From contig RHPI01002656.1 in assembly GCA_009103225.1 (NCBI GenBank), positions 186,001 to 250,000 of the forward strand: 64,000 bases of DNA, given 5' to 3'. Both the position numbers and the translations under genes were made by a program. The stretch comes from Chlorokybus atmophyticus (Eukaryota; Plantae; Mesostigma and Chlorokybus algae). The notes beneath the pieces were generated by a model. It did no database searches and was not told the origin of the DNA. It saw nothing but the letters and a program-made list of their open reading frames with translations. The stretch's first letter is position 1. Every line of letters begins with the position of its first letter. Shown piece by piece: positions 9,101 to 45,850 of this stretch.

Positions 9101-11787
9101 CACCGACACCAACACCACCAACAACAACAACAACAAGAAGGTGTGCTTACCACTTCCTTGATCTCTTCTCGGAAGCCCATTTCCAGCAGCCGGTCTGCTT
9201 CGTCCAGTATTAAGATAGCGAGGTCCTCCAGGCCGACGGACGCGGTGTTGTGCAGGTGGTCTATCATGCGCCCTGGCGTGGCCACCACGATGTCCGGCTG
9301 AGTGCGCAGAGCAGCCTCTTGCGCCTGCATGCAACCACTAAAGAATGTAGTGGCCTGGCCTGGCCAAGGCCTCGACTCACAACACGATTCACACGCACAC
9401 GAAAAACCATGATCAACAGGGGGAGTGACCCACCTCCTCACCTTGACGGAGAGGCCCCCCACAATCAAACAAGCACGAACATCTGTAAACTGCGCCAGCT
9501 TCTGTATCATCCCATGCACCTGAGAAGTAACATGTTCAGTGGTTGGCGTGTAAGGTGTGTGACTTGGAATTTTGTGTTGAATCCAAGAGCTGTATGTGAT
9601 GTAAAGGAAGTACAACAGCTGCTGCACCTGCACGGCGAGCTCACGAGTGGGCGTAAGCACGACGGCCCGCACGGCCGGCACGCGTTTGGGTCGGTAGAGG
9701 AGGCGCTCGAGCATGGGCAGTGCAAAGGCGGCGGTCTTGCCCCCTCCCGTGATGGCGCTCCCGCACACGTCGCGGCCCGACAGCGCAAGCGGGATGCAGG
9801 CAGCCTGGATGGGCGTTGGAATGCCGTAACCTAAGAAGCAAACAACAAGTGCACGTTCGAGTCTGCCACACACACAATATACGTATACGATGTGGACACG
9901 TGCAAATAAGCCAAGATGTTTAAACCTTGCATGCCCTCATGCAGGTGCAATGTAGACACTTCAAGATGGATACACAACTATCTACCCGAGTGCTGCGCAA
10001 GCACTGGCATGTGATATGTTGCTCTGAAAATTGCCATTTGCCAACAGATCCACTCTCTGACCACTTGTACTTACCAAGCGCAGTGCATGCTTTCAGCAGC
10101 GGGCGAGACAAGTGAAGCTCATTGAATGACTTTGCTGAGAACTGAACACCGTCCGGAGTGGAGAAGAAGGCTGCCGGCTTGCTGTTGGCCTTTCCCTTAA
10201 CCTTTGTTGCTGGCTTACCGTTTGCCTGACAGAGGGGAGAACAACAAATTGTGTGAGTATTGATCAATGACTGTGCTGTCTACTGGCACTCGCGGACACG
10301 ACTAAAGTGTCTGCTGTGTGACAATGACGATAGACACTACTACATAGCTGAGTGAAGCTATGGTTGTGTAACTAAAACAGCTTGTAACAGACCCCAACGC
10401 ACCAATGGACGTGTGCCGAAGTTCTCTTCTTCATCATCAGACAAGGGGCGCGTGCTGGCACCCAAACTCCTCTCAGCTCTTTCTTCAAGCTCGCTTGCGC
10501 TGCTCTCCTCCTCATCGGCTGCATCGTCGTCATCATCTTGCATGCAGTTGCCGGCGTTGGCTGCAGCTGCAGCCTCTGGCAAACAGAAGGGCCCAAAGAG
10601 TGAGAGTCGTGGCTACACGTCGAACCGCAACAGGCAGTCCCGATATGACACAGACTGTGGATGATACCTGCTCTGGCGATGTTCACATCGTCAACATCAG
10701 AAGCATCTTCCACCTCACCGTTCGTGTCCAGTTCAGAAGCGTCATCGCTCTCATCACCGTAGATGACTTGCTGTTCTTTTTCAACAGGCCTGCTTGTACT
10801 TTTGTGCTTGCTCTGGGCATAGCAATAAGGCGTGAGGATCCTACTACTGCACCAGACACTAGAAGACGAGACTGTGAGCGCGAAGTGAGCAACGTGCCGT
10901 TCTACACATGCACACTGTAAAGAAGCTTGTTGGTACAATGCTGAACCCTTGCTCACATTGGTGAGAGTGAGGAAACTGAGACACAATTTTCAAATACCAG
11001 CTGCGTATCCCAATGCCGCACGTCGCAAGTGCAATAATTGTATGTAAAGGACAAAAACACACGACCAACTGCATACCAGTCGTGTGCGCTGAGCCTTTAT
11101 TTTCGCATCCAGCGTCGTGGTCTTCTGCTCCTTGTGCTCCTGCTCCAGCAACCCCTTCGCCTCCGCAAACTCCCATGGCACCTGGAAGCATGTTGGTGAG
11201 ATATATGAACAGCAACCTGCTGGCTCCATGACCTGGAGAAGCGTGGTGACACAAACACTTGTACAAAGAGCCAGATACACAGAGACAACTCCCAAGTGAT
11301 GGTGCATGAGTGATAAGCTGTCAATTTCAGTGTGGTTGCTGGCACGGTCTCATAGTCGACACAAAGGCTTTGAGGCATTCCACTACAATAATTTGGTATT
11401 AAGGTAACGACAAGAATCCACAAGTGCCTAGTCGTGGTTTACCATGGCTAGCCGGCAAATGTGTAAGCAGGATACCTGTTGATATTCACACAATTGCCGG
11501 CTAGCCGTGACAAACATAGTGCGCTTGTCTACAACTCTGAGTGGTGCTGGCTCGTGTTTGACAAGTTACAGACAACACAAGCACGTAGTGCACTACGTGC
11601 TTGTGTTAATTGAAATACTGCATACTCAGTTTGCTAGTTGTTTTGTATCATTGAGCGCTAACACATTGAGTAGTGCGGCGTCACTTTGTAGCCGCCAGTG
11701 GCAACCAATGCCCATTACAACGTCCCCTACCTGTGGCCCCGAGGAGCCGAGCTCGTCCCCTGCGTCGAAGCTGAACTCAGGGTTCAT
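6104..11787 (-). CDS. DDX27: DEAD-box RNA helicase, DDX27/DRS1 (plant RH28-like), multi-exon
   Basis: N-terminus [19 protein letters not shown]|VPWEFAEAK...TTTLDAKI. Motifs: PTPIQ (Q), [10 protein letters not shown] (I), PTRELAVQ (Ia), VATPGR, DEAD (II), SAT (III), [12 protein letters not shown] (VI). Family-typical C-terminus FKSKAK|YKRR* (last exon 6104-6119). Confidence 0.93.
9010..9138. repeat. Degenerate (CAA/CAG)n microsatellite in a DDX27 intron
   Basis: acaacgacaacgacaacaataacaatagcaacaacagc...accaacaacaacaacaacaag, flanked by helicase exons. Confidence 0.8.
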
Positions 11788-13648: not shown

Positions 13649-14410
13649 TCAAGCATCGCAAGACAAACTTTCTGTATACACAAAGTTCTTTGTGTACACC
13701 ATTGTGGGCTCGACTCTCTTTTGCTGCACGTTACTGGTCGCCAGTACGCGCACTCCCGCTCTACCACCAACGCGCGACAACGCCACATACAGCTGACCGT
13801 GTGTGAATACAGGCTCAGGCATGTAGACTCCCACCTTGCGCAGAGTCTGGCCTTGAGACGTGTTGATGGTCATGGCGAAAGCTGCACGTATTGGAAATTG
13901 TCTGCGCCTCAGCGTAAACGGCATACCCTCCACATTTGAGGGCGTGATCATTAGTCGACGGATGAAGACTCTTCTGCCTTGAGCTGGTCGCGTAGCCACT
14001 TCAGCATAGATCACATGCTGCATGAGGCCTTTGCAAATGAGACGCGTGCCGTTCGCCATCCCATCAGTCATATTTCGCAGCAATATAACCGGGCTGCCTA
14101 TCTTGAGACGCAGTTCATGTGGAGGTAAGCCAGACACCATGATGCTGTTGAGATATTCAATGGGGTAATGGTTTACTTGCTCCTGTGATGGCACAGAATC
14201 AGCACTGCGGTATACCCTCTCCTCATTCATCTGCGCAGTGCGGCGGTAAGTGGCATGTTTAAAATATATGCATGATGTTTATATGCAGCTGCAGTTATAT
14301 CTGAATCTTCACCGGCACGTACCATCGCTGAAACGCGCCATCATTAGCGTGTTGATCTCGTCAACGGTCACATTTTTTGGCGTAAGGATTGCTCGGTTGA
14401 TGACATACTC
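13649..14410 (-). pseudogene. C-terminal part of the Helitron PIF1 helicase, left of the insertion
   Basis: EYVINRAILTPKNVTVDEINTLMM (14340-14410), an intron, then ORF 13649-14230 with PIF1 motifs IV-VI. Confidence 0.92.
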
Positions 14411-14559
14411 CGTCGCAATATGTTTTCCCTGCCGGCCGACTAAATATTGGCAACGGCCGTGCACCTGAGGACACTAATATAGACTGTCGTGGCTCAGGCC
14501 ACCTGTAATCTTGATACAGGGACCTAATAGTAACTTCCGTTACTATCAGGCCCTTTTTA

Positions 14560-14880
14560 TTACAATTAGTCTTTAACAGTTGACTATGCCTAACTAACAG
14601 GCGCCTGTCAGTTACCTGTCAGGCCTTAACAGGTGACTTTATATAATTAACAGGCACCTGTTAGTCACACACCAGGCCTCAACAAATGACTTTGTGTAAT
14701 TTACAGGCAACTGTTAGTTACACATCAGGCCTTATTAGGTGACTACAACTAATCAACGGGCACCTGTAAGTTACACATTAGTCTTACTTAGGTGACTCAG
14801 CCTATGTGACAGGCACCTGCAGGTTACACAGCAGTCCAGCGCAGGCGACTAAGCCTAATTAACAAGCACCAACTAGGTAA
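14560..14880. repeat. Subterminal tandem repeats (about 52-bp unit, about 6 degenerate copies) at the left end of the element
   Basis: Recurring aacaggcacctgttagttacac...caggcct...aggtgact unit. Confidence 0.8.
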
Positions 14881-15230
14881 TTATCGACAAAATAATGCAT
14901 TCTTTAACAACTGAAGGTGACTAATGCCTAACTGTCGTCATATGTACTTGCATAGCTTGACTACACGCGATTGTCACTGACTTCCAGCATTGTTATGTGC
15001 ATGTGCTATGTACATGTACCTAAAATGTGTACAGTGTCTCTCAGTCACTTGCCGAGGCTTGTAGTTCAATTATGTGACTCGAATGCAGTTCTGTTGTATA
15101 TCATAGGGATGCAAGTATTGATGTGCATGAGCATAATGACGATTGACTGAGCTGGTTTAAGATGCACAACACTCAGTCACAAGAGCCTTATAGCTATGTA
15201 CACTACCAGCTAAACGGACTACCAACTGCG

Positions 15231-17058
15231 CTACAGCTCCTCTCCATCATCGCTTTGCTCGTCATTACGGAACAAAGCACCACGCGCTGGGGCCTGTGGA
15301 GGAGACGCCGGAGCTTGCTCTTCCTCCTCAAACGGTTGTGCCAGCCAATCAAATGCCGCTTCTGCCTCAGCGAGCGGGTCACGAGCTGCTGTCTCTTGCG
15401 GCCGGCGCCGATTGGGATCTTTCAGGTATTCGACACAAGATGCGGTGCGGCGTTTCACATGGGTGAATGGCTGGAGGGCTGCGTACCGTTGCCTCATCTC
15501 CCGCTTCATTGACATGATCATGGTGTTGATTTCGCTGAGGTACTCTTCATGTGTGTCTATGCTGGCAGTTAGGAGAGGGTCTCCATCCTTGCCCTTTAAT
15601 ATGCGCTCCACCTGCGTAGTTTACAGGCATGTTCTAGTGGCATCGAAAGCCACTATTCACTGCAACGCGTCTGCAAGCCTGTAGTTTGGGGATATAGCAT
15701 TCCTGAATTGCTAATGCTGGAGTTCAGAGTGCTCACCGTAAGCAACAGGTATGCGAGGTGGTTGACTCTTAGCTGCCGGCGACCAAGTGTAGTGACGGCG
15801 TAAGATCAGCATTGCACGATCATTTGCCAGATTATGGGATTGCCCCATTCATGGATGTATCTCCTCCGCTCCGGGTCTGCAGTGTCGGTCACCTCAAATC
15901 TCTGCCATGATTTGTCTGCGACAGTCATACCGACAAGGCATTAGTTACGAAATAGATAGTTCAAGTTGAGCCTGCACCAGGCTTGAATAGTGCCTGTGAC
16001 TTACTTTGGAGCGCGTTGCGCATCTGGGCTTTTTGGGTCTCGGGGTCCATTAGGGCGTCGATGTGCCTGATTGAATCGGTTACAATAGGCGAGATGAGTA
16101 CGTGTGTATGGAGGCTGAGTAAGAAGGCAGTGTTGCTTAGCAGACATGGTGGTGAGGGACCCAACTCACTTGCGCTTGTTGCTGTTAAACAGTGTCCACT
16201 TGTACTCCTTCTCAAGGACATGCTTGATCTTGGTGACGTTCTCAGACCGGACCTGCGTAGCTTTCTTCAGGGCGACACTCCAGTGGAAGGGGCACTCCTT
16301 GGGAGTCCAGTACACCTCATAGAACTTGGCCGCATCGGCCTCGTCGTCATGGTCGAAGCCAACTACCTGTCACGGGCAGGTTGGTCAGTGTCACGGTGCA
16401 GTGCGGTCATGAAGCATTCACAGCACCTGACACATGACGTTACGAATAGTGTCCTCCTTGGGATAAACGTGGCTCTCTACCCAGTGGCCGTTTATGATTC
16501 CAACGACGGCATCTCGCAAATGCTGTCCACAGAAGAACAATCCGTTGCACACATACACACAGTGTCATAGTGTCACACAGTGCTTACCTCGTTGCCAATC
16601 TTCCACTTGCTTGGGGAAGGGTTGCTGACGGCCGAGGTTGCCACGTCACGGCCAAATGCGTTTGGGTTGGGGGTTCCAATCGACCCTCTGCAAGCACAAC
16701 CACATGAGTCATGCTGCCAGCCATGAAAGATGCAACCCTCACATTTGCAAAAGAAGAACAACGTGCACAGTGTATCCAGAACGCATGCAGTGAGTCACTG
16801 TGCTAGTCATAAAAGAAGCAAGCATCCAAGTTAGAAGTTGAGCAAGAAGCAACGTGCACAGTGCATCAAGAACGCATGCAGTCTAGCTTGCCCTTGCGAC
16901 TGCGGTGTCTGGTGGAGTTGTTGTGATGTGCTGGGCGTTAGCGCGGGGTCTTGCTGCGATTGGTTGGCGACGGTTGCCTGATTGAACACTGGGGGCAATG
17001 TGGACAACTGGCGCCGACCTCCACGACGAGGTGCACTTACGGATGGACCACGAGGCAT
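15231..17058 (-). CDS. Transposon cargo gene A, unknown multi-exon protein, possibly disrupted
   Basis: Exons with GT-AG-type boundaries: MPRGPSVSAPRRGG..., GSIGTPNPNAFGRDV...KWKIGNE, VVGFDHDDEADAAKFYEVYWTPKECPFHWSVALKKATQVRSENVTKIKHVLEKEYKWTLFNSNKR, HIDALMDPETQKAQMRNAL, and acidic C-terminal ORF 15231-15611. No domain recognised. Confidence 0.5.
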
Positions 17059-17647
17059 CTCTCCAACTGATAGTNTCCGGTGCCGCCTGTTTAGCTGATA
17101 GTGGCGCTGCCGCCGCCGGTTGGCCCGCCCGAATGTACGAGGCGCGAAATCGAAAATGAGGCGATTTTGACCGTCTAGAGTCCCGCACTAGAGTCGCACT
17201 TGTAATGCGTCCTTGCTCCTAAGGTTGATGGTACGACTTATGCATTCGTGCCATCCATGCTTCGTACAACCATTGATAACAATGGTTGTGTCGTAACATT
17301 TATGATACGACAGAGGCATCTCTCGTCCACCCCTAGCCATTGCCGTACAATGGGGCTGTCGTACCATCCATGGTACGACAGAGGCATTGCTTGATTAGCC
17401 CAAATGGGAGTTAGCGTGCACTCACCCAAACACGCTTCATTGATGGCCGGATGATGGCACGCAGGGGCACCAGGTCGATGACGGGTCGGGTGTCAGGCAT
17501 GATGGGCTTGGGTTCGACTAGGAGGCGGAGGACCAGGAGTCAGAGGAGGCGGCGGCGACGGCGGCGGCGGCGGCGTGGCACATCTTGCGAGAAGTTGTGG
17601 TCATAAGAGTTCAAGCAGCGAAGCCAGCTACTACCGGTCGCCACGTC

Positions 17648-20397
17648 ATGGATCATGGCAGGCGTCAGCAATGGGGCTGTCCAACATGCATCACCAACAT
17701 TGGACAAACCAGCAGGCAAGCCATTAAAGACCATCTTCACACAGAGAGCTGCTTGGTGGCTCGCTTTCTGCAACAAGGAGTGGATCAGGAGCTGCAGTCC
17801 TTGGAGCCCCTTGTCAAAACCATGCGGGACCAATTACGGCTGTGGGAACAAACCTAAAGGAATGCAGAGGTACGCTCAACAGTCACATGCATTTCCTTGC
17901 AAGAGCAATTTGTTTCTGAGCGCAGTCTATGTGATATATGTAGCGTGGCTGCAGGCCTCCACTATTCACCCATACCCACCCTACAGTCAAGCCGACATTG
18001 CGGAAGCAAGAGCAGATAGACAGAGCTGAGCGGCGGTATGTTGTTGCCAATCTCGCTGTGCATGTTGACTGCAATGTCGGCTCCAATGCATGCCTACCTT
18101 TGCATGCTAGGATGTGCGTGAGCGTGTGAAGTCGCGCGCGCGTGCCGAACGAAGTAGGCTGGGTTTGAGCACAGGAGCGCGTGGCCATTCGTCCGGCATT
18201 CAACCAATAGTGCATCAACCAGCAATGACGCAGTCCATGCAATCATTCGTGCATCAACCAGCAATGCCGCAGGTGACTGTTCGAAGCAACCAACTGATGA
18301 CGGTGTGACGCAGTTGACTATTGCAATTGCAGTGTCGCAAGCATGCAGCTAACCCACATGTGATTGGTTGACAGCACCACAGTGCACTAAGTCCTGTTGG
18401 AGCTCCTATGCAAGCCTGGATTCAATCCCATCAACTGGTCCTTCAATCCCACTTGCTGATGGGCGCGGCGGCAATGCGGCATCAGTTTAACATGCATGTT
18501 GGCCTGTTGAATCCCGACATGTCCATTGGGGCAGTGGCGCATGATGTGCCCATGGCTCAAGAGCTCCGTGACGAGTCTGCCATCGAGGGTGGCGGGGAGA
18601 GTGCAGCCAATACCACCTTGTCAGCCCCCATGGCTTCCCCTGCTCCATGCAGCCCACGGGCCATTGAGGTAAGTCGCTGTCTTTTATGCTCGTGCCTTGG
18701 TAACAATGCGTCAGGCACTGCATAAGCTTATATTCGTCCTTTGCAACATTGTGAGCCATCTTATCCTGGGTCCTGTATACAGCCCCCCTTGCTGCATGCA
18801 CAAGTGGTCTCACCTGCAGCTCCTGCTCCCCTCCCAGCCAGAGCGCAACCACCTTCCGCGGCACCAGTCCTTCATGCACTGCCATCTCCTCCACGAGCAG
18901 CACCGGTGATTGCGGGGCAACAATCCTTCTTGCCGCCACCGGCGAGACCACAGCACAATGCAACAACCGATGTGGCTTCTGCACCTACCTTACCCCACCC
19001 GCTGCAAGTTGAAGCCGGCAGTCTGCCCCAAACTCAGGTACTTTATCAGTCACTGTGACTCTTGCCGTCCACAGTTGGACACACCATGTGAGTGCTGTAT
19101 GCGCATGCAGCAGGGGTCACCACCTGCCAGCGAGTCATCAGAGGAGCTTGCCGCAACCCGCATACGGCCATCAATCATGCTAGGTGGCCAGCTCGCCTCA
19201 TGGGACCACTTCAATGCGCCAACGGATGGTAATTGCTTCTACCATTGTGTATTTCGCGCCAGGCCATCCATAGCGCAAAGTGTCCTGGATGATCACAAGT
19301 GCCCCAGCTCGAGCAGATTTTGGGCCATGCTGGACACCATGGACGACGACGGCAGGGGGCACACTCTCCGCAAAATCACCGCCAAGGCTGTCGATGCAGA
19401 CGTGGCGAGCAGAATCTTAGACTTCTGCAGAGCCACTGGTGCCGCGGGAGAGATGGCGCAGTATTACGACAAACTACCTGCGACCATGTTGGCTGATGTC
19501 AACTGCAACATTGACCTAGCCATGGCCAAGGTGCGACAGATCGTGCGGAGAAAAGATGTGTACGTCGAGCACCTGCAGATGACCATGTTTGCCAACAAGC
19601 TGGGCTTGTTGATTGTCTGCGTGACCGTTCAGCGCGAACATGGGGAGTGGGTGCCACGGCCCGGCAGCGCAGTTTGGGTTGGAAATACAGAAGCCCCCAA
19701 CTCAGTCCTGGTGGTGGGAATAATACAAATACTGCTCCTGATGAGCCAGAAGCACACTTTTGGCTCCTCAAGCCTGCAAGCACCGAACAGTGGTCGTGGC
19801 CTATGCATGAAGTGCCACCGGAGGTAACACACCTGATCGGAGAGTGGCGGAATGGCGTTGCCAATTCCCCGCTACCACCGGCTGTGACCCAGAGTGCTGC
19901 GCCAACGCCTCAGGCCTCGCCTTCGTGTGCTAGGCAAGAAGTAGCCGAGTGTTCTGCACATCCTGCCTCCCCTCAACCACAGCCACATGCTCACAATCCC
20001 AATTCAGCCCTCCCTTCCTGCCGCGGAGACTCACTTGCCACCGCACTCTGACCATCCGGAGGCATCTCCATCAAGAAGCAGCTGTAGCTCGCCCTCTCCC
20101 TCTAAGCTTGCCACATTGATCCCAGCCTGTCTTGTTGGTAAAGAGATTGATCGAGGTGTCCTGAAAGCTGCGCTGAAAGACAAAGGCTTCATGCTCGACC
20201 TCATGAAGCAACATGAGGTCGTGGAGGAACGGGAGGCAACCAACAAGCGCAAGGCTGTGGAGCAAGAAGATAACGCCTTACCTCCTCTGAGTGACAGTGC
20301 CACGGAGAGCGCCTGCCAGGATGTGCAGGGTGACAAAAAAAAAAGAAGAAGGTTGTTGGAACAAAGGACGCTGACAGGACCAAAAAAGGAAAGGTGA
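17648..20397 (+). CDS. Transposon cargo gene B: C2HC-like zinc finger, Pro-rich linker and OTU-like cysteine protease (one frameshift)
   Basis: GCPTC...DHLHTESC at 17670-17750. OTU Cys box APTDGNCFYHCV in ORF 18910-19827. His box EAHFWLLKP lies in a shifted frame after the G run near 19716. Start and some exons uncertain. Confidence 0.65.
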
Positions 20398-20493
20398 GGC
20401 ATCGTTACAACATTAGAAGAAGCACAGCGCCTTGAAGCCTCACTGGGGCTGACTGTGTGTCCTGAGTAGGCACAGGCGGGTTTACAGCGTCAA

Positions 20494-21500
20494 ATGGCTG
20501 CTCAGCATCGTCCAAAGAGACAGCCGGTGCGGCACGAGCTGCCTAAGCTCAAAGCACCGACGCGCAGACGCTTTAAGGGGCTGACTCGTAGTGCAAAGGA
20601 GTTGATCACCCTACAGTACGCCCAAGACACGCTGCATCACCGCATGCGGCATGCCTCGAGGTGGGTGACGAAAGTTTGCAATAAGTGGGCGCAAACGCGG
20701 AGAATGCGGTCTAAACAGACCTCTGGGGATTGGCCGTGGTTGGAACCCATACACGATATGGCCATCCGTAGTACGTTGTTGCCCCTCGCCGTCCTCGATA
20801 TGATGGTGTTGTTGCTGCCGCAGCAGCCCGGCAATGTGCAAGAGCTATCTGCGGAGCAGAACTTCGACCTGCTGCAGCAGATTTACCTGTCGATGTCGAC
20901 TAAGCGGGTCAAGATGTGTGCCACTACCTGAGCAAACATACTGGGTGGCAAGTAAAACCATTCGAGCTGTACTTGGCATGCTTTGGCTGGCAGTGGCTGT
21001 ATGTCATACGGCACGTCGAGCTGATTCTGTGGAAGCTCGAAGAAAACGATGCGGGGGAGTACACGAGTGACGACAGCCATGTCGAGGGCCTGGATGAACG
21101 TATGCTGGACGAGACCACCAAGACCAGCAGGTGGTGTATGGCGGCAGATGGGCGTCAGGTGATCGAGCAAGCAGTGGAGCGTTATGCTGCGCCATTCAGA
21201 TGGGAGTCGCTACGCCTGCGACGCGATAACAGAGTTTGGTGGCAGAGACAGCTTGCACACCCGCGTGCACCATGTGTGCTGATTTGTCGCATTGAAGAGC
21301 CACCCCCCCCAGCGGATGGGGAGACGCCCTGTTGCAAGAAAGCGATGTGCCATGTCTGCATCATAGCACATCGGAAGACTGTGGCAAATAAATCAAAGAA
21401 TCTACAAGCGTGTCCATTCTGCAAGCAACCTCACCCGTTTTGGTCGCCACGCCTGATGCAAGACGCCGACGTGTCGGCGGTGATTTGGCCCCCGCCTTGA
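20494..21500 (+). CDS. Transposon cargo gene C: protein with C-terminal RING-like finger (one frameshift near 20920)
   Basis: ORF 20494-20931 continues in ORF 20916-21500, ending PCVLIC...TPCCKKAMCHVCIIAH...ACPFCKQ, a RING-HC-like spacing. Confidence 0.55.
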
Positions 21501-21983
21501 TGCCAATCGTGCATGTATTGTAGTTTTGTGTTGGCTTCCTGTGAACCATGTAGGTACATGTATAGTTGCAGCATGGTGCATGGTGCACCAGAGATTTGCT
21601 GTTGTTAGAAGCATTGGCTGTACATGTGTATGATGACTGCCCGGCACATGAGTCAGTGCATGGCTTGCATACCTCGCTGGTTTTGAGCGTGGTTGACAGC
21701 AACAAACTCGGACAGCGCTCTGAGTTCCATGGCATGACAGCACAGTATTACTCTACGATCGTGGTAGTATGCGAGTATCCTTGTACTGTAGTACCATTAA
21801 CAGATGGAGTACCATTCATGTTGATGTAGTACCATGCATGGTACTGCAATAGCGTATAAGGTACAGTCGTGCTTCACTTGAAGTTTGACCCATTTAGGGT
21901 TCGTAAGCTGGCAACCCTAAATTGATGCCCATACCCTAAAGTCTCGCTCAGTTTGTGGGCAGCCGTGCCGATTCCTATTTTGC

Positions 21984-23010
21984 ATGATGTCGGCGGCAGC
22001 AGTTGAATCACCCTCACCTAGGAGACCATGCTTGGTGTGCCCACAATGCAATGCGTACGTATGTGCCAATGGCCGTAGGCAGCAAATGCGAGCACACTTG
22101 ACCGAATGCCAGCGAGTGCAGACAGTGTGCCACGGTTTTAGTGCTGCTTGCTGGCATCACACCACACACAATGTCGACGTGTTTGGCTGCCGCCTCGGCC
22201 AAGTGCTGTGCCAGGAACCCGAGTTTTTCCATTGCGTGCAGTGCGTGTGCGAATTTTGCTCGCGCTCATGCTTCGAGTGGCGAGGGGAACCCATGCGCTT
22301 CTTGACATGGACAACACCGGGACATGTGGTTAGTGAACAGGTGGTGGATGCTGTGGAGGTAAGCCACAAGAGTAGACCGCGACGTATCACTGCATGTTAT
22401 GTTGGGCGTATGCTTATTTCATGCATGTTGAAGCTGTTGTCGCATTCAGAGCAGTCTTGCACGGTGTGGGCGTGGGCAGTTCCATCCCCTGGCCGCTGTA
22501 GAGGAGGCAGACCATCGACCGTTGGACAGCGCACTGCATCGGCTGCGGAACGCAGTTAAGTTGGGATGCGAGCAGCTGATCGGTGTGAGTGTCATGGTGC
22601 ATTGGCCGCTGGATGGGGAATGGTATGCGGGCGTTGTGGAATCATTCAAGCAAGCGTCAGGTCAGCATCGCTTCGTGGCGTGCGAGATTGAGGACGCATC
22701 ATACACGCATGGTGCAATGGAAATTTTTTTTGCAGGGCAGCACTATATAGTATTCGATGACGGTGATCGACCACAAACCATCAACTTCAAAGGGCACAAC
22801 GTATTCGCGTACACATCAGTTGACGGGGCACGCCATGTTCGCGCGCCGGAGGGGAGAACGTCAGTCGCAAAGTAAGCCCGGACGGCATCATTGTTTGTCC
22901 CTGGCCAGCACCACGGCCAGCCTTGACCACATACACGCCATTTGACAATAAGCTGGGACGCACACAGAGACCAAGGGCACTCGACCTATTCTGCGGCGGT
23001 GGCGGTGCAC
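21984..23010 (+). pseudogene. Transposon cargo gene D: Cys/His-rich zinc finger, Tudor domain and truncated C5-cytosine DNA methyltransferase (motif I only)
   Basis: Exon 1 21984-22359 (CPQC...HLTEC...), exon 2 22450-22660, exon 3 from 22739, giving LIGVSVMVHWPLDGEWYAGVVESFKQASG|QHYIVFDDGD (Tudor). After one frameshift (between 22824 and 22872) comes RPRALDLFCGGGG, matching the FxGxGG SAM-binding motif I. Sequence breaks off there. Confidence 0.65.
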
Positions 23011-24916
23011 GTGTTGTTGGCTTTTGTGTTCAACACAAAAGCAACACCAAAGACGTGCCTGGCCTGCAGAATCTGTCTCGTGGATGGACGCATTCGTTCC
23101 TTCGCGGCGGCGTCGTACACAGCAGCAAGCAGGTGGTCAATGATGCCTCCCAGCACATGCATTGCGTCAGGGGCAAGACGAGAGTAGCAGTCAGCTCCCG
23201 GCACCCGCGACTGTCGCCAACCCCACAGTGCATTCTGTTGCCAAACCACATTGCCTGGTTTCACGGAAAGCCATTCATCCTCACGAATGCCGATAATTTG
23301 ACCATTACCTCCTCGACATGCATGGCGTGCTGCTCTTTGAAAGCCTTGGCTGTCTGGCGTGCATTCCTAACAGCGCTATGCAGGTCCGCCCGCAGCTGAC
23401 GTATTGCTGGTGTGTAGAAGGCCTCGGTTCTCAATTCCCAGTCCTCATCCATCTCCAACAGATCTGATTTGGTGACGAGACAAACATCGCAAGGATGTCG
23501 TGTTTGGTTGCCCGACACAGTGCGTGCGAGTGTGGCAGTCTCCTACAACACGACAAACTCAGATGTTTTACTGACAACATCCTCTATGCACTGTTTGCTG
23601 GCAGGCTGCATCCGGTTACAACCATTCATGCCCACTACCTGCAAATCGCTGATGTAGTTGGCAAGCGCGAGAAACACACGACGCTCGATGCCATTCGGGT
23701 CGATGAGCTGCAGACCTTCCCAACTCGCCCGCTTCACATCCCCTAACACTACATTCAAAGCGTCATGAAAAATCTCACGTTTCCGAATGGAGAACGATTC
23801 CTTGCCCTGCGCCCAGGTGGGATGCCCGGCCACTGCGTGAACCACCGGCAGAAGCGCTATCATAACAACCCCCATGTTGCTAGCATACATGTCCCAACTG
23901 TAGTTGGCAAGCGATGCCATCAGAGGGTAGCCAGAGCGCTTGCCCGCGCTGTCCAGCGTGGTCTTGTCACTGTACAGAATGGCAGGCGCCAAGTAGGACG
24001 CTTCCCCCACCTCTCTCCTCAAATCCACCTCCACATCCTTCCACCAATCGCCCGTGGAAGGATGGCCAAAGCTGTGCTCGTCACCAGTGTACTGGAGATT
24101 GAAGCCATTGGCGGCATGTGGATTGCCATACAACCGCGCGAGCCATACCTGCTCCGACCGAGAGCATTACTTACTATGCTGGCCTCAGAATAGATACTGC
24201 ATTGATACTGCATTAGGTACTGCATTTTACAGACCTTGGCCGGCATACATGTGACGCAGATGTCCTGATCCTCAGGGTCTCCAGGCTTGCGCAGGTCAGC
24301 CGTCGCGTAGTTCTGATACGGCAGCACACTCGCATGTGCATATGTGACATGGCTCTGATGGTTGAAGCACATGCACCGCACACCGTGAACACACCTCAGA
24401 CTGAGAGAAAGCAATCGTGGTCCGGAGGTAGCTGGCCGCATGCACACCGGTCTCCCACTGGAGCTCTTCCGTCAGGAAGTGTGCATTTCGGATGCACTTG
24501 ATGATCCGCCCCATGTCGGAGGCCGACAGGCCTTGGCCGTTGCACTGCACGAATGCCACTGCAAGAGCATGCTCCGAGCCATACCACCTGGATTCCGATG
24601 CGTGCGAAGGGACGCCTCCACTTCCATGTTGGCGTGCCACAGGTTTCTCAGACACACGCACACATCGAAAGCCCTCGTTCACTTCCTCCTCCTCCTGTTG
24701 CTGCAGTGCGTGTGTCTCCTGGAGGAATCCTTCAGCATCAAGCATGTGAGCATCCTGGATCGAACTCCCCGGTTCAACATGACCCGCATCGTACTGTAAT
24801 GGACGCTGGCCGACATACAGCTTGATCTGCTTGCACACCCTGCTGCTAATAATGTGCATGTAGACCGAGCTGCGTGTGGCGAAGCGCATGTGGCAATACG
24901 GACAAAGGACTCCCAT
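22986..24916 (-). pseudogene. Plavaka-family transposase, multi-exon, C-terminally truncated and frameshifted
   Basis: N-terminal CPYC...H...C finger. Core HPSTGDWW...LAPAILYSDKTTLDSAGKRSGYPLMASLAN...IALLP...EIFHDAL...NGIERRVFLALANYISDLQ, then HPCDVC and LAPDAMHVLGGIIDHLL. This matches the recalled Plavaka pattern (WW...IILYSDKT...YP.Y.SLGN...D..E...PD.LH). Confidence 0.82.
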
Positions 24917-24977
24917 ATCTCACTACTAACGTCGACACAGGTGTCGCCAATGTAACCTGCATCATATCCAGCAACAC

Positions 24978-25015
<38 letters not shown>

Positions 25016-25431
25016 GCCACCGCCACCGCTACCCTTGCACGCCAGAGGCGGGAAACTTGGCCGCCAGTCACTGGCTCCGTCGTACCATTATAATGGTACG
25101 ATCGAGCCATTGCACGTCCAAGGTGAGTCTCTGGATATTTTTATATACATATATATTCTGATTGAACCGTTTCAATGGTACGAAGATGCCTTTGTCAAAA
25201 GGTATAGGCATTATACAAAGGTACCATTGAAATGGTACCTTTGTACAATGGCAATGGCAGTTCGTACCATTGACAACTCTGGCAATGTCAGTTCCCCTGC
25301 GCATAAAAACACCATTGATAGCTCCGCCAGGCTATGCCCTTACAGGGGCGTGATGCCGAGGGTATGTGGCGTTTGGAGGATTGTTGGCGGCGCTACTAGG
25401 GGCGTAGTGGGCATTTTGGTCGAGGTCCGGG

Positions 25432-26288
25432 ATGAATTCCATGTTTGCACAGGGCGGGCAGGGTGCCGGAGGGGTGTCCTCGGTGTCAAACCCCACCAAG
25501 ACTACCAAGGGCACATCCAATGACAACAGTGACTCGGGCGATATTTTACAAAGCTCCCCCTCCGAGTGGGCAAAGGCACACCACAATACTGCCTCTAAGA
25601 AAATCCGACCCACCAGCAGCTGCGACCACGGCGACATGATTGAAGGGACCAAACAAGACTGGCATAACCAAGATGGGTTACGATGCACTGTCAATGCCAC
25701 ATGCTAGGGTTCTTGTATCTTGCACATGCACAGCCTCAAGTATCTTGCACTTGACATACTACTGTCAATACCACATGCACACCCTCATGCACAACCTCCA
25801 GTGTCATGCACATGAACAGCATGACCAATCTCGCAAATGCACAGCCTATTTCTACTTGCGGGAGCTCACAAGTCGCAAAAGAGAAGCTGCGGAGTACCAC
25901 GAACGGGTAATCCATGACCTAGTTTAATGTTTCCAGCGGTAATTAAGCAGTATGCTTGCAGATTGCCATGTTGGTCAGAGTGAACCAAGAGCAGCGCGGC
26001 AGGCTGACTGTCTGCCTGGCGGAGTGCAACAAAGCGGAAGACGAGGTAAGCGTGTGTATGCTGATGGGCTAGTCCTCTGGCAGCACGCCACTCTTACAGC
26101 ATTACCAAATGCAGGTGGTCACTCTCAAAGCGACCATCAAGCGCATGCGCGTGCACGGCGAGGCGCTGACATTCAAGCTGAAGGACGAAGTAGCCGCTGT
26201 ACTGTCAGCGAGCGAGGCAGCGGATGAAGATGACTCCGGCGTTGAAGCAGAAGACTCGTCGGAGGAGGAACAGGAGGAGGGGGTTTGA
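25432..26288 (+). CDS. Transposon cargo gene E: small spliced coiled-coil protein with acidic tail, unknown
   Basis: MNSMFAQGG... ; ...VNQEQRGRLTVCLAECNKAEDE|VVTLKATIKRMRVHGEALTFKLKDEVAAVLSASEAADEDDSGVEAEDSSEEEQEEGV*. The last two exons and their splice sites recur in the copy at 30085-30400. Confidence 0.5.
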
Positions 26289-26851
26289 GGAGGAGTTCTG
26301 AGGCAGGCACCACGGGTTGACAAGCTGCGCATGAGTCCAACAGCTAGACTCAATGTTATAGGGCAGTTTCATGCGCAAGTCGGCTGCTCAGTTGTACGTG
26401 GACATACTCTCACCACTGCCCGTACATTGTATATGTTGTGGGCTTTTAAGTGCAAGACCAAACAATCAGTCCAAGGTTTGTACAAGCTGCATGGCATGTT
26501 AGTGTTGGCTTACGGCAAGAATTGCCAACTTTTGTCAAACGGCAAGGGTCACATATTAACAGCAGTGTAACGGCAAAGAAACTGCCGGCTATTGCTGTCA
26601 GCTGTCCGTAACTACCGGCTAACGGCCGTCTGTGTACATCGACCAAAGGGTAACTGGTTGACGACTCTTGGCCGGTTAGTGCCGCTGACAACCACTTTCG
26701 GCCCGCGGCCGTCTGCGTCAGTTCACTTAAGCCAACGGCAAACCCAACAGTCCAAAAATAATATTTCAGGCAGCAACAGGCAGGCTCAGGCAGGCTCAGG
26801 CACCAGTCAGTCCCTCAGTCCTTAGTCAGTCACCGTGTAAAATTTGCGACG

Positions 26852-29781
26852 TCGGCCAGAGCTTCCGGTGTCGGCTGATTGCGCAATTCACCGTACATGT
26901 CTTTGATTAAACCTTCAAGACTGCCAGCTTCACAGCAAAGGTCGGCGTCCAGGCGCACCATCTCCTCCCCAATGTCAAAAAACACATGCCCACGACCATC
27001 ACCGATGCGCTGCAAAAAAACGCTGAACTCTTGCTGCTCTACTCCGGATTCTCCTGCAGCTTGTAGCGTCTGCACACGCATGTTGATATGCGGCTTCATC
27101 ACATTGATCCGGCTCCACATCGTGGAGTACTTCAAACTTGCGTGCACAATTTCCGAACGTGTTCGGCGCGGCACAACGGGTAAGATTTGTCGGAAGTCGC
27201 TGCCCAACACAACAACCTTGCCTCCAAAGAGCAGACCCGCTGCCTTTGGACACGCCGTGCTGATAATGTCTTGCAGTGTACTGTTAACCGCCTCAAAGCA
27301 GAGCTTGTTCATCATCAGAGCTTCATCCCAGACAATTAGCTCCGCGGCGATCATCAGCTTCGCTACGGAGCTGCCTCTAGAAATGTTGCAAGCTGAGGTT
27401 GCACTCAGCCCCCAGTGATGGGGATTTTGAATCTCGAATGAGCTGTTTTTCCACCTGCACAACCACAACTTATGTGAGCATGCTTGTACTCATTTTGCTG
27501 AATGCATACGTGTGATTTTGTCCAAAAGCACATTAACGTACGCATTGATTACCTCGAGTAACAATGCCGCAATGCCGGATGACGCAACAGCAATTGCAAC
27601 ACGTCGTTTGCTCCGAACATATGCAAGCAAGGTGTCGTAGAAAAACGTCTTGCCAGCACCTCCAGGACCGTCGACGAAAAGAGTTGAGTCCGAATCCGGT
27701 CGAGGTCTTTCAACTAATTGTACGACAGCGTTGTACGCGGCACGCTGTTGTGCATTCAGTTTCGGAACGTTAACCTCCACGCGCTGCCTCATCACATCCT
27801 GATCGTAAGCATTCAGCTCCTCTTCAACCAATGGAGAGTTGGAGTCCGTTGGCGCAGCTTGCGGTAGGGGCAACTCAGAATCCTCTAAGTCTTTGCCATG
27901 CTGTTGCAGCAGGCGTCTCAGATCGTGCAGCGCGTCATCAATGTCGCGCTAGTTCAGCGTGGCGTTAGGATCCAGCTGCACACGTAGCGAGTGAGATTTG
28001 ATTTCATATTGACTTGTGCACTAAATCCTTTTGCAATTTTGCAACTGCATGTATACTGTGCGTACGCTTCGTCGTCGATAAGTGAAATCGTCCGTAAATT
28101 GCTCCAGAAACTTGGTCCACAATGTGAGCGGATTTAGTGCCTCATTGAAGACCAAGATAATCGCGAACATCGCACGAAGCTGCCTCCCTGTTTTTGACTG
28201 CGATACAACACGCTTATCAGGCCATCAATATGCATCATCGACTTACTGCAATATGTGCTTACGACGGCAGCATCGCCGATTGCTAGCTCCCACTCGTTGT
28301 CCTCCTGCAGCAGTCCTCGCGCTACGCAAGCTTCTTTGAATGTAGCATGTACGCGCTCATCGGTCACTTCATATGTTGTGCGCAAGCGCGCAAAACTGGT
28401 GGCTCCTGGTACATTATGTAGAAGCATACGCAGATAAAGCTTCTCGCTGTATCTGGGAGAAATGTAATTCATGCGGCCAATGGCAAGAAACCGCCGCTTC
28501 TTCTTGCGTAGGGTCCATTCCTTCTTATACCATCGTGCAATGGATGGGACGTCTTGATACAATGTGGACAACGCGATGGCTTTTCAACAGCAAGATCGTT
28601 TTACAACTCTGTCCTAAACTGAGCTTCAGCCTTCCGATTGAGCTCAAACCAATGTATGAGTGTGGTCGGCGCACCTCTTTCAACCACGTCCGCGAGTGGC
28701 GTGTCCTCATTGTAGTACACAGTCTGCTGATCTGGCAAGTGCACGGCCAGCCGCTCAACTTTCGGAAGCTCACGATGGATCTCAAAGCAGTATATGCACC
28801 AGCAAGCCGCGCTCGAAGACACATAGTGCCCTTTCAGATGTCGCTTGATCTCGTCAATGAGAGGTTGCACCTCACTGTCAGCATCCGGGGCGGGTACGTC
28901 CACCATAGCGCGATTATGTCCCTTGTACACATACTTGTACAGGTACTTGACGGAGGACACAGAAGAAATCTCGACGTTGATGTGGGCGTTATACTTGAGC
29001 GTCAGGAACTTGTTGTAAGGTACTACGTCGATGTTCGTCAACACTACTTCGTTCCCACCCACACTCTTAACGAAAGTGCGGCCATCTGCACGTCGCCGGT
29101 ACACCGGGTATGATCCGGTGCTGTCCGTCGTGGTGGCTTGAAACTGCTTTAGGTACTTCGTCGTGCAGATCTTCTCTTGGTCCATGCAGGGGCTTTTTGG
29201 GTTTCGCACGCCGCAAGGACCGTGCACCATCAGACTGGTGACGATGTTATACAGCTCTGGCTCGTTGATTTTGTCGAGCAGCTCCGCGCACACGATGTTG
29301 TCGTAATCATCTGTTGTTTTGGGTCTGTCTTGCGGCCAGCACGATAACAATGTGTGCATGCGGCAGCCCATTGCACGTGACCACGTAATAAGTATTGCAT
29401 TATCTGTGATGTATACGCATGGGTTTAAGTCCCCGATCTGTTTACTTGTCAACCCACTCACCTTTCTGCCACTCAATGGTGTAGATGATACTAGCGACTT
29501 TGCCCAGACGCGAGCTTCATGTGAAACACGCGTGCTACAATATCTGGTCGATCGGTGGCCGTCTGCCCTTCCAACAATGCTTCTTGTATCTCCGTCCACT
29601 TCGGGTTGCATGTGAACGTGATGAACAGATCTGGCACTCCATGCGTTCTCACGATTGCCATAGCATCCTGATACAACTGTGTCATGTGTCGCGGAGTACC
29701 AATGGACTTCGATGGCAACACAATCCGTTGTCCCATCTCCTGTCCTTGCAGACCGTCGTTTGCGTCTACCGCATCACGCAC
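26852..29781 (-). pseudogene. Helitron Rep (HUH/Y2) and N-terminal PIF1 helicase, frameshifted
   Basis: ORFs 29491-29781, 28601-29611, 28134-28571, 27490-27873 and 26830-27468 are consecutive RepHel segments in changing frames. Confidence 0.92.
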
Positions 29782-30053: not shown

Positions 30054-30960
30054 AATTAAGCAGTATGCTTGCAGATTGTAATTTTAGTCAGAGAGAACCA
30101 AGAGCAGCACGGCAAGCTGATTGTCTGCCTGGCGGAGTGCGACAAAGCGGAAGAGAAAGTAATCATGTGTATGCTAATGGGCTAGTCCTCTGACATCACG
30201 CCACTCTTATAGCATTACCAAATGCAAGTGGTCACTCTCAAAGCAACAATCAAGCGCATGCGCGTGCACGGCGAGGTGCTGACATTCAAGCTGAAGGAAG
30301 AAGTAGCCGCTGTATTGTCAGAGGCAGCAGATGAAGATGACTTCGATGTTGAAGCAGAAGACTTGTCGGAGGAGGAACAGGAGGAGGGGGTTGTTTGAGG
30401 AGGCGTTCTGAGGCAGGCACCACGGGTTGACAAGCTGCGCATGAGTGCGACAGCTAGACTCAATGCTGTAGGTAGTTTCATGTGCAAGTCCGCTGCTCAG
30501 TTGCAAGTGGACATACTCTCACCACTGCAGGTATCATACATTATGTTGTATATATTGGGGGCTTATACTTGCACCAAACAATCAGTCCAAGGTTTGTACA
30601 AGCTGCATGGCATGTTAGTGGTAGCTTACGACAAGAATTGTCAACTTTTGTCATACGGTAAGGGTCATATATTAACAGCAGTGTAACGGCAAGGAAACTG
30701 CCGGCTATTGCTGTCAGCTGTCCGTAACTACCGGCTAACGGCCGTCTGTGCATATTGACCAAAGCGGTTGACAAATCTCGGCCGGTCAGTGCCACTGGCA
30801 ACCACTTTCGGCCCGCGGCCGTTTACGTCAGTCCACATAAGCCAACGGCAAACCCAACAGTCCAAAGGTAACATTTCAGGCGGCGGCAGGCAAGCTCAGG
30901 CAGGCTCAAGCACCCGTCAGTCCCTCAGTCCTTAGTCAGTCACCGTGTAAATTTGCGACG
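30054..30960. mobile_element. Orphan right-end fragment of the same Plavaka-type family
   Basis: Colinear, diverged copy of 25941-26851, ending in the same terminus gtcaccgtgtaaatttgcgacg, followed by TA. No matching left end found. Confidence 0.9.
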
Positions 30961-31426: not shown

Positions 31427-34124
31427 GCGAGCTTTGCACTTAAACTATTAAATGTGTTGCAATTGAGCATTGGTGTACGCAGGCAACACATGCTAGGCAT
31501 GCACTACATCATCATTCAATTATACATGTGCGCGTAGCTACAAAAAATCGTACTTTTTTGGTTGTGGTAAGTTTAAGTTTTCACACATTAAATCAAACAA
31601 GCTGATAAAGTAGTACATCCCGGTACACACCGATGCATGCCATTTGCATTGGAACGGAGTACGCACTATACACACGGCGATAATGAGTTTAACACAAATA
31701 GTTAATATGATGATTTATAATACTAATTGAATTGCATTACCACGTCATGATGTGCATTGTAACGTTCGACATTTCCCCGTAGGCCATTCATGAAAAAGGC
31801 GCTTACATGTTGAGTTTTTCTTATAATTGGTAAATATCCAAGCCCTCACGTTGTGCACTAGAGGGCTACTATACCATGCACCAACTTAAATGGGCACATG
31901 AATCAATTCGAGTTTGAAATCAATATCCAGCATCTTAACAAGTATGAAAGTGTGACCAACGTCATAAGTTACCTTAAACATCAATTAAGCCTGGTATACT
32001 CAGCATCATATTTATGCAGATGATGATCAATTGACCAACAGTGGACACATTTTCCCCTGCAGCATCCAAATTTTTCAGACAAGTTTCACTTGGAAAATGA
32101 GGGAAAACACATGAAGCGGCAAAATAAGCATGATAGCGGTATCGTTAAAGATCATAATTATAATTTGCATGTTATTGATTAACTTTTCATCTCGCCATTT
32201 TTCAAGCCCCAACTTCCTTTGCCCGGAATCCAAAACCCTTTATGTATCCCCCAAAGCCGGCCTTTCGTCTCCTTGTGAAACCTTATGGTTGCGCAATATA
32301 AGTGCGCAAGCAAAGTTCATACGCATTGCGCTAGTTGGATGGACTCATCCGCAAGCAATCGGCAAGGTAACTTCTATCCCTGTTGAGGCAATCCGCATCA
32401 ATTCTAACGGCACGCAAGCTCATTTTTGTAATGCTTATTATCATTATGCATTTAATCAAACATGATTGTGTATCATGCGTACATCGCGACCAAGACTGCT
32501 GGTGAGCAACAATCTCACACCTAAATTCCTAGTTACGCAATGTGTATGTGCAAATCAATGTGATTGGTTCAACAACATGTTTTGCTTTGCATGATAACTC
32601 ACATGCATCTGGTGTCAGCATAGACAATGGCTGGTAGCCACTGGCGGTCAACTTGCACGCCAAGCACCATTGATGAAATAAATTTACCTACTCGTATAAT
32701 ACGGAGGGAAGCTTTATGATTGAAACTATCCTCCGTTATGATAACACAACTGTAAGTGAGTATTATGTATACGGTGTTTACCGCCATGGCCAGCATGTGG
32801 CCGTAACTTATCAGCATGCACAAGCCTCGGAAGTATTAGCCCAAACGGCTTCATTTGGGCAATTAAGACTCTGGATTCAGACCACGAGGTCGGGTACGAC
32901 ATTGACGGAAGTATCGTACTTCGTTGGATACGACCCTTATTTACAAACAATTGTTCGTAAGGGAGGGTTTAAAGCCCCCCTCACAAAATCAACGGGGGGT
33001 GTTGTATTAAGGGACAATATGAGTGTAAGCGGGGTCTTAAAGCCCCCGTTGCATTATATCCCCCCCCCCTCTTTCAACAGGAGGTGTTTGAATGGGGTGG
33101 GGTGGGGTGGGTTGTCGAAATGCAGTAATCACACAAATTCATGATATCTGGTGATTGTGTTTTGCATAGTTGACCAATCATCAACCAATGCTATGCCCAG
33201 TTTAATTTAAGATAGCGTGTGGCTACTCGTACTGTTGCCCGGGACCTCGACGCTTCCATAAAGTCATCAACGTTTAAAGTCGCACATCATGTGTTTGTGT
33301 CGTGCAGCCTGCTGATGTGACGTGGCACGAGTCGTGCTTTCTTGGGTTTGTGGGCACGGCAGTCGTCTCCATGCATGCTGTAAGCTTAGTTGCTGTTAGA
33401 GTAGCTTACTGCGCCTTGTTGCACGTACGGCGTTGGGCGCTGAGGTGGCGGAGGTGGCGCTGCTGGCTAGTGAAAACGCCGTCTGAGCAGGCGAGCTGCA
33501 GGTTCCCTGCCCTTTGCGTTCTGTGCTGCTCAGGTGACGGTAAACTTGCTTGAGAAGCACGTTGCCACAGACCACAGCCGGTGAGTGGCGCTGTGCTTGC
33601 GAGCTTGGTGCTGGCAGGGTTGCAACAGTATACGGAATCAAACTGCAAGGGTCAGAAGGTATGTGGATCTTCTTGATGGCAATGCAAGTCAGCCGCAATG
33701 TGTTGGAATGCTTGTCCAGTCTAGCTGCATTGGCATTGAGTTTTTGACAAGCCTCAGTGTGAAACGGCAAACATTGTTACAGCAATAGTGCGGACGAACA
33801 ATTAGCTTCCATGCAGTGCAATCTGAACTTTTGCCACTGCGCTATGTGCAGAAGTTCAACCTGCCTTGCGTGGAAGAAGCACATAACCAGCGTTGTTGCT
33901 TGAACAGTTCTGCTTTTACAATACGCTTATTTGGGAATCGCACTTGTGCTGTGTCATCATGCTCACGTTACATGCAGGCGGCCAACTATCAGTGCCAGAA
34001 ACATAAGGAACATGCCCAGTGTTGTGCATGTATGTTCTACTGTGTACATGTGTGGAATGAGTTCACACAGAGACCACTGCAGGCTGAGAGACAACCAGCT
34101 CAGGCTTCTACACAATACTGCGCG

Positions 34125-36143: not shown

Positions 36144-36657
36144 CCAGATGTGTAACTTCCAGTAGTACTGGAATCGTGTCCTGTTTGCAGCCACTGTGCT
36201 TGTTAATGCAGCATGTGCTTGTACTCCGTGTTCTGTCAGCATGTATACACAACACCCTTGTATGCATTGCATTCATTGTACACATATGCCGTCACCATTG
36301 TTTGTACATCTCAACTATCTAACTGTCATTGTGCATTGTTTTCATAACTGCCAACGGCAACCGACTACAGCCTTTCAAGGGTATTGCCGCAGCTTGTTAC
36401 GTCTTGTACATGCATGTACATGCAACCTGCGTTGTTGTGCAAAGAACGTCACAGTCGGTCAAACCCCGTAAGTAACAATGCATGGCAAAACATAGCTAAC
36501 GACGTTGCTTATGTTAGGATGATGTTAGTGGTAGGCGGGCATAGTAAACTCACATTCCCCCCTCAATAGTATTATGTGTGTGATACAAGTGCTATTGCTG
36601 CTAGCTGATTAAAAATTTTTGGTAATGACAAACTCGGCTGTCCAGACTTGATCCGAA

Positions 36658-44989: not shown

Positions 44990-45850
44990 AAGTTTCGACT
45001 TGGTTTATAACATTGATGCTGCAGTCGTGTGCAACAACCAGGAGTGCTGGAGTCGTGCTTGTTTGAAGCCTTCGTGCTGGTTAATATAGCATGTGTATGC
45101 TTATATTTCGTCCGGCTTTGTCAGCATGTATAGGTCACAACCAACGGAGGTGATTGGTAGCACAAGGCAGCGCGCAGCTTCAATTCAGCCATAGCCACAA
45201 CACAACAACGTTAGGTGGGGTGGGGTGGGGGTCCACTAGCTAAGACCAGTGCACTAGATCACAGGGAGCAGAGGAGGGGAAGGGCAGGCAGCAAGCACAA
45301 GCAAGGGCAAGAGAACCAGCTTCATCTGCCAGCACTGCGCATGTACACACACGTCCTCGCACTTTATGGTCATTGCATACATTACATCCACCACCCTTTG
45401 TGTTAATCCAACCTCATCATTGTCCCCCCGTCCCCCCGCCCCCCGCGCCCGTTCTCAACATGTCAGCAAGGATACGAGATACTGCCTCATCACATCGAAC
45501 AAGCACAGCGGGGCATTGGCTATGACAACATAGGCTTGCCCGGCTAGCAAGTTTGGCTGGGTGCACGCTTGCAAGTTGTCTGTATCCGCGTCGCACAACC
45601 ACAACACCAGCCTCCATGTAGACCAAGACCTCGTTTACTACTAAACTCCCGCTGACATGGATCTCACACCTCTGATGCAAAATGCATATCTGACGCCAAC
45701 TCAGATTGTACTGAACAAATTACTACAACAGGTTTGGCATGGTGCACAATAGGCCTTATCCCTCGATTTATATACCTAACCAGCTGTTTGTACAGCAAGC
45801 AGTTGCTATGCTACTATTTAGATTACTACCAGGCCATACTATCTACCACG

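Follow-up and report, generated by a model that had tools for sequence, protein, structure and literature searches.

A Plavaka-type DNA transposon of Chlorokybus atmophyticus with a predicted Tudor–C5-cytosine methyltransferase fusion gene

Analysis of a 64-kb stretch of Chlorokybus atmophyticus DNA (the window) identified a Plavaka-type DNA transposon of ~12.4 kb. As cargo it very probably carries a gene whose predicted product unites in one protein a Cys-rich stretch, a Tudor domain of the RDM15/PDS5 type and a C5-cytosine methyltransferase (C5-MTase) that is likely phage-type. The copy in the window is internally deleted, and contigs from public sequencing runs extend the reading frame from the Tudor domain into the methyltransferase. 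We consider it probable that the protein encoded by the predicted fusion gene would bind nucleosomes carrying monomethyl-lysine (likely H3K4me1) and methylate nearby cytosines.

The element, its insertion site and its other genes

The element is a cut-and-paste DNA transposon inserted in the helicase frame of a Helitron (Table 1). Its ends consist of 8-bp terminal inverted repeats (TIR) flanked by a 2-bp target site duplication (TSD, TC/TC), and in an empty-site reconstruction the excision of the element plus one TC restored a 245-aa open frame of the Helitron helicase. The original prediction that the fusion gene lies inside a DNA transposon is confirmed by the inverted ends, the duplicated target and this empty site. 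Element ends near 17200 and 25350 were rejected on the basis of no matching repeats, flat run cover and no listed loose ends at these positions. The Helitron Rep/PIF1 gene is split by the element into parts at 13652–14410 and 26852–29773 on the minus strand.

Table 1. Features of the transposon and its insertion site in the window
Feature	Position	Strand	Evidence and remarks
Interrupted Helitron PIF1 helicase, downstream half	13652–14410	−	PF05970 and PF21530; upstream half beyond 26852
Left TSD (TC) and left terminal inverted repeat (CGTCGCAA)	14409–14410 and 14411–14418	+	
Plavaka-type (EnSpm) DNA transposon	14411–26851 (12,441 bp)		TIR, TSD and empty-site reconstruction
Cargo gene, likely spliced, broken in window copy	15234–17187	−	ORF pieces; no credible Pfam match
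OTU-like deubiquitinase domain (lead only) in longer cargo gene	19162–19824	+	DGNC motif
Cargo gene ending in RING-like Cys cluster (weak)	20470–21500	+	E 0.053 to TRIM30
Exon 1, Cys/His-rich N-terminal region	21984–22358	+	125 codons, 14 of them Cys
Exon 2, linker and first half of Tudor (from ~22573)	22450–22660	+	
Exon 3, second half of Tudor and linker	22736–22871	+	One base short at 22840 in window copy
Predicted intron 3 (96 nt, phase 0)	22872–22967	+	GTAAGC..CAG; ends at methyltransferase N-terminus
C5-MTase remnant, motif I (RPRALDLFCGGGG)	22968–23008	+	One frame off exon 3 in window copy
Deletion junction, 2-nt overlap GC	23007/23008		Flanked by loose ends in X1, X2 and X3
Plavaka (EnSpm-type) transposase, spliced	23007–24919	−	PF18759, 80.3 bits (cut-off 26.3), E 2e-22
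Cargo ORF pieces	25411–26285	+	No Pfam match
Right terminal inverted repeat (TTGCGACG) and right TSD (TC)	26844–26851, TSD to 26853	+	

Two features of Plavaka membership were found, the PF18759 transposase and the combination of a short TIR with a 2–3-bp TSD. Plavaka elements are described with a 2-bp or 2–3-bp TSD and with the termini TGT..ACA (PlavakaA) or CATCA..TGATG (PlavakaB) (Kojima, PMC12730594, section 3.2.2). The termini of the present element, CGTCG..CGACG, match neither, and it was therefore placed in neither subgroup. The transposase gene is oriented tail to tail with the fusion gene, and its frame is cut at the deletion junction soon after a DAMH (DxxH-like) motif, its 3′ end being deleted. 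A search among longer proteins revealed no close homologues of the transposase (a weak negative).

Several of the remaining cargo genes are damaged in the window copy: the runs differ by 2 nt at 17075 in the minus-strand cargo gene, and the frameshift at 20903 in the RING-like gene is absent from runs X2 and X3. The OTU-like domain scored 0.94 in the Atlas to a Nucleocytoviricota cluster, of whose members 34% carry PF02338; it had no OTU Pfam match, and its PDB match was at E 0.21. Its nearest Atlas cluster is from giant viruses. The domain is adjacent to the RING-like cluster (21237–21497), and the two could represent a ubiquitin eraser and writer.

Further repeats and genes were observed in the window. 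A non-coding relative of 1,590 bp (58951–60540) has both ends as in the element (77% identity over 136 nt at the left end), a TA/TA target duplication and, internally, a palindrome of 114 nt (59841–59954), and is likely a non-autonomous partner. Beyond the Helitron Rep region, 30054–30960 is the right-end fragment of another element copy (88% over 924 nt), for which no matching left end was found within the window. Clusters of GTAC-centred palindromes lie upstream of the element genes (17230–17390, 21780–21850 and 25070–25270) and occur in the small relative too; they are possible binding or methylation sites. Four diverged copies (~70–90%) of one gene-like unit, repeat-protein-like by eye, are located at 34000–36300, 39000–41200, 43000–45000 and 61700–62900, three in tandem and one inverted. 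A spliced helicase gene at 8680–9936 (minus strand), likely a host gene, is by its motifs what we take to be a DEAD-box RNA helicase.

Domains of the predicted fusion gene

The three exons upstream of the methyltransferase join without a stop via predicted GT..AG introns 1 and 2 (91 and 75 nt), in accordance with the in-frame exons and Cys-rich N-terminus originally proposed. The designation of this N-terminus as a zinc finger held in part: the Cys-rich character was confirmed, whereas a zinc-finger family was not, as exon 1 gave no Pfam match, a best Atlas score of 0.84 and a model with a pLDDT of 43. From its composition, the region is likely zinc-binding. Half of the listed differences between window and runs in the gene (7 of 14) fall in the predicted introns, which account for 262 of 1,025 nt.

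The Tudor fold was corroborated by a match of the read-through ORF to the Tudor domain of Arabidopsis RDM15/PDS5C (PDB 7DE9, E 4.5e-5), which comes in two pieces, with the predicted 75-nt intron falling exactly between them. In agreement, a HMMER search gave 45 hits, and a Tudor/Agenet-family Pfam match was present in 38 of the 44 scanned (the 45th, of 5,344 aa, was left out for its size). The H3K4me1 pocket of RDM15 consists of an aromatic cage around the methyl group (Trp616, Tyr623 and Tyr641) and of two residues that confer selectivity for the mono state (Asp643 and Asp645); H3R2 is held by Glu647 and Gln654 (PMC8184781). Once the intron is removed, the alignment is gap-free, and the positions of W616, Y623, Y641, D643 and D645 are occupied by W, Y, F, D and D in the element. 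The position of Glu647 in the H3R2 pocket is a Pro, which makes H3K4 specificity uncertain; the element Tudor is, judged by its pocket residues, likely a monomethyl-lysine reader, the histone site being less sure. Neither a Tudor–MTase fusion among the 45 Tudor hits nor homologues of the Tudor ORF among longer proteins were found, both weak negatives.

A profile of 11 phage C5-MTases, searched against the six-frame translation of the window (2,978 pieces), had its sole match at the motif I spot (E 5.7e-5, next best 0.24; profile positions 2–19), which bears out the motif I signature of C5-MTases read there before. With the same profile, motifs IV, VI and VIII were absent from all pieces of the window. 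This result and the deletion described below account for the earlier statement that only motif I survives, with no PC, ENV and RxR motifs. Taken alone, the 23-aa remnant had no Pfam match. The motif I pattern, which was written after the motif had been seen, occurred in none of 100 Markov-random 64-kb windows; the random windows contained on average 0.56 copies of the bare FxGxGG, against two in the actual window. A chance occurrence of motif I was rejected on the 0/100 result and the E value of the profile match relative to the next best.

Using a degenerate extended-motif pattern built from the element's own motif, 18 viral loci (L001–L018, six near-identical) were retrieved. The motif opens an ORF in all 18, and in 16 it is followed by PC, ENV and RHR within ~200–270 aa, the other two being cut short. 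PF00145 was found in 17 of the 18 at E 0.1 or better, in 13 above the cut-off, and a profile of the viral loci had its best PDB matches to the C5-methyltransferases HaeIII, DNMT2 and HhaI. A non-C5 reading of the motif was rejected on these downstream motifs and PDB matches of the viral loci. The residue after GG is Ala in the element and in 84 of the 120 longer family members listed; it is Leu in HaeIII and Met in DNMT2. The corresponding small phage/giant-virus C5 family takes in Pithovirus protein P0114. A motif scan of metagenomes added eight prokaryote/phage-like loci, four with PC, ENV and RxR, one with ENV and RxR only and three cut short. No Tudor or Plavaka sequence was found near the motif in these 26 viral and metagenome loci, and searches of viral contigs and of metagenomes gave no related loci; among the 120 listed of 153 long MTase hits, no Tudor or Cys-rich match was present (all weak negatives).

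The domains BAH, chromo insert, PWWP/ADD and SNF2 characterize the families DNMT1, CMT, DNMT3, DNMT5 and DNMT6. None of them was found by Pfam upstream of motif I in this gene copy with its deletion. Because 24 residues yield no tree, the assignment is graded as likely: the methylase would belong with the small phage/giant-virus C5 enzymes and not with a host DNMT1, CMT or DNMT3. In ORF 22824–23396 the profile match sets in at residue 49, whose codon begins at base 22968, immediately behind the predicted acceptor. This coincidence suggests that an intron-less viral gene may have been spliced onto upstream Tudor exons.

Lesions of the window copy

Contigs of the public sequencing runs X1 and X2 (one sample) and X3 were compared with the region; on long pieces they have ~1–2% other letters and may derive from further copies or from different strains. 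The window itself may come from any one of these runs, and contig depth was not taken as copy number. Runs X4 and X5 cover small parts only, and one X5 piece (22524–22676) is too short to inform on splicing.

The frameshift noted before motif I is present, with the correction that it results from the loss of one base in the window copy. An extra base behind 22840 was found in the runs, with 73.6 of 81.9 summed depth in X1, 7.22 of 7.22 in X2 and 130.9 of 288.7 in X3. With this base, no stop interrupts the frame between its start codon and motif I, either with predicted intron 3 spliced out (254 codons) or with it retained (286 codons); without it, the unspliced frame of the window stops at codon 242.

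The second lesion is a deletion at 23007/23008. In run X2, a single contig of 2,521 nt (record 14) covers 22355–23008, thereby spanning the Tudor domain and motif I, and continues for 1,866 nt more; a further record (15) has 239 other nt on the transposase side of the junction. The loose ends and the 1,866-nt continuation give a deletion of at least ~1.87 kb and a full element of at least 14.3 kb. Thus, the window copy has an internal deletion that removed the larger part of the MTase together with the 3′ end of the transposase, and because of it the rest of the methyltransferase is absent from the window. The first 30 nt past 23008 in record 14 read in frame A-S-V-G-L-Y-H-A-G-F and continue the motif I helix typical of C5-MTases, and not the non-C5 or unrelated sequence that the original prediction had considered for longer copies. 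An intact catalytic domain is expected in the deleted part. The missing base and the deletion mark the window copy, not the element family.

A 38-nt hairpin (23012–23049), in a stretch also found in a run contig, lies four bases from the junction on the transposase side and may have promoted the deletion. No methylation footprint was detected: of the 72 distinct listed differences between window and runs (those best supported), 37 were of the C-to-T type, and these were distributed over CG (10), CHG (9) and CHH (18) as in the background. The observed/expected CG ratio of the element was 0.76, the value of an unrelated repeat region.

Proposed function and known systems

Since both breaks are absent from the run copies, an intact element would likely lay down DNA methylation of its own at selected chromatin. 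An intron-less viral methylase would have been captured behind host-derived Tudor exons. In plants, H3K4me1 is a mark of active gene bodies (10.1101/2022.05.28.493846), and transcribed element copies would gain gene-body H3K4me1 and thereby recruit their own writer, which would set the methylation state of the element (gene-body-like or dampening) independently of host silencing. We propose this self-marking mechanism tentatively; the lack of a CG or CHG bias among the C-to-T differences between window and runs speaks against it. A DNA transposon makes no naked cDNA, so a reader-tethered 5mC writer would have to act on chromatin.

Among other functions of the same fusion, a role as transposition co-factor appears unlikely to us. 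The Tudor domain would then steer the transpososome to or from H3K4me1 chromatin, and the methylase would mark the ends or fresh insertion sites, controlling transposase binding. Chromatin readers of transposons often tether insertion (10.1101/2021.11.30.470311), methylated ends can block transposase binding (PMC3627910), and the element contains GTAC palindrome clusters; however, the Tudor domain is fused to the methylase and not to the transposase, and the window copy is inserted in a Helitron and not in a host gene. The fusion protein could also contain a catalytically dead MTase domain and act as a DNA/chromatin-binding module or as a decoy shielding the element from host silencing. Motifs IV–X lie beyond the readable stretch (motif I plus 30 nt), the adenine MTase domains borne by DIRS1 are described as likely inactive (PMC4738411), and deamination bias is absent among the listed differences; given a SAM-binding motif I that is textbook over 24 residues, we rate a dead enzyme as quite unlikely.

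Captured host and viral fragments without function would fit the decay of several genes of the window copy and the passive transfer of TET/JBP genes between families (Kojima, PMC12730594). Such passive cargo is improbable in view of an intact Tudor pocket, phase-matched introns, the enrichment of differences in predicted introns and several window-copy frameshifts that are absent from run contigs. Finally, the Tudor gene and the methylase might be separate, with the Tudor protein ending at the codon 242 stop. The window's own unspliced frame does stop there, and the extra base accounts for under half of the summed depth in X3, but the methylase frame has no ATG between 22842 and motif I and the only listed contig spanning the whole interval has the extra base, which makes separate genes very improbable.

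In the most far-reaching reading, a eukaryotic cut-and-paste transposon would have assembled its own histone-guided 5mC writer by joining a methylase of viral origin to a reader of the H3K4me1 type taken from the host, and would methylate active chromatin, its own or the host's; this is possible, though short of probable. If true, it would invert the arrangement seen in N4CMT and in TET-carrying elements and could be a source of transposon-driven gene-body methylation in an algal lineage. Transposons are usually combated by cytosine methylation. An element of this kind, acting on chromatin, would directly test whether a transposon can determine the methylation state of itself or of its host, and it would reveal a route for viral methylases into eukaryotic epigenetic systems. 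With an enzyme of the small family, the reader-writer would be compact (< ~500 aa) and easy to assay.

Epigenetic cargo in Plavaka, DNMTs in retrotransposons and reader-fused methylases are already published. The literature search, which covered few subscription papers, found no Tudor–C5 fusion in a cut-and-paste element (a weak negative). Reader–transposon fusions involve mostly PHD and Chromo domains (10.1101/2021.11.30.470311), and Plavaka-flanked giant repeats are described in Amoebidium (PMC11244446). Closest in element type are the giant Plavaka elements of the red alga Bostrychia (10.1101/2025.02.11.637652), which are also large, multi-gene Plavaka/EnSpm elements in which a DNA methylase is joined to a domain related to chromatin. 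Their PAG2 protein combines two writers (an N6-adenine methylase and SET), whereas here a C5-methylase is joined to a Tudor reader and accompanied by OTU-like and RING-like cargo. PlavakaB of fungi and algal DNA transposons carry TET/JBP (PMC12730594; 10.64898/2026.10.09.758095); they are likewise cut-and-paste elements with a 2-bp TSD and a cytosine-modifying enzyme, but encode erasers or oxidisers in place of writers, with no reader fusion noted, and differ from the present element in their TGT..ACA or CATCA..TGATG termini.

The capture of DNMTs by eukaryotic retrotransposons, invoked in the original prediction, is published for algae, namely SymbioLINE-Dnmt and SymbioDIRS-Dnmt3 of Symbiodinium and KnitGypsy-Dnmt3 of Klebsormidium (PMC5890265). 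These share with the present element a transposon-borne algal C5-MTase, for which self-methylation was proposed; they are retroelements, in two of three cases with a Dnmt3-type enzyme, and Tudor has no occurrence in the text of PMC5890265. Mariner-1_OLpv of Organic Lake phycodnavirus is also a cut-and-paste transposon encoding a C5 DNA methylase (PMC3627910), but it resides in a virus, where the methylase stands beside an EcoRII-like endonuclease as a restriction-modification pair with no histone reader described. The small phage/giant-virus C5-MTases (~200–240 aa) share motif I at the N-terminus and its GGGGAS.G..AGF signature and are stand-alone or fused to viral proteins.

On the reader side, RDM15/PDS5C has the same Tudor type, with the five K4me1-pocket positions kept, and is tied to DNA methylation (PMC8184781); it works through RdDM and has no methylase domain, and its H3R2-binding Glu is the Pro of the element. 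Host reader-writer fusions include the chlorophyte-type Dam (PMC4738411) and N4CMT of bdelloid rotifers, a prokaryote-derived DNA methylase with a chromodomain (PMC8885841). N4CMT is also a DNA methylase fused to a Royal-family reader that reads histones and writes on DNA. It is a host gene that acts against transposons by placing 4mC at silent marks, whereas the fusion described here is predicted to write 5mC through a Tudor domain at a likely active mark and is itself encoded on a transposon.
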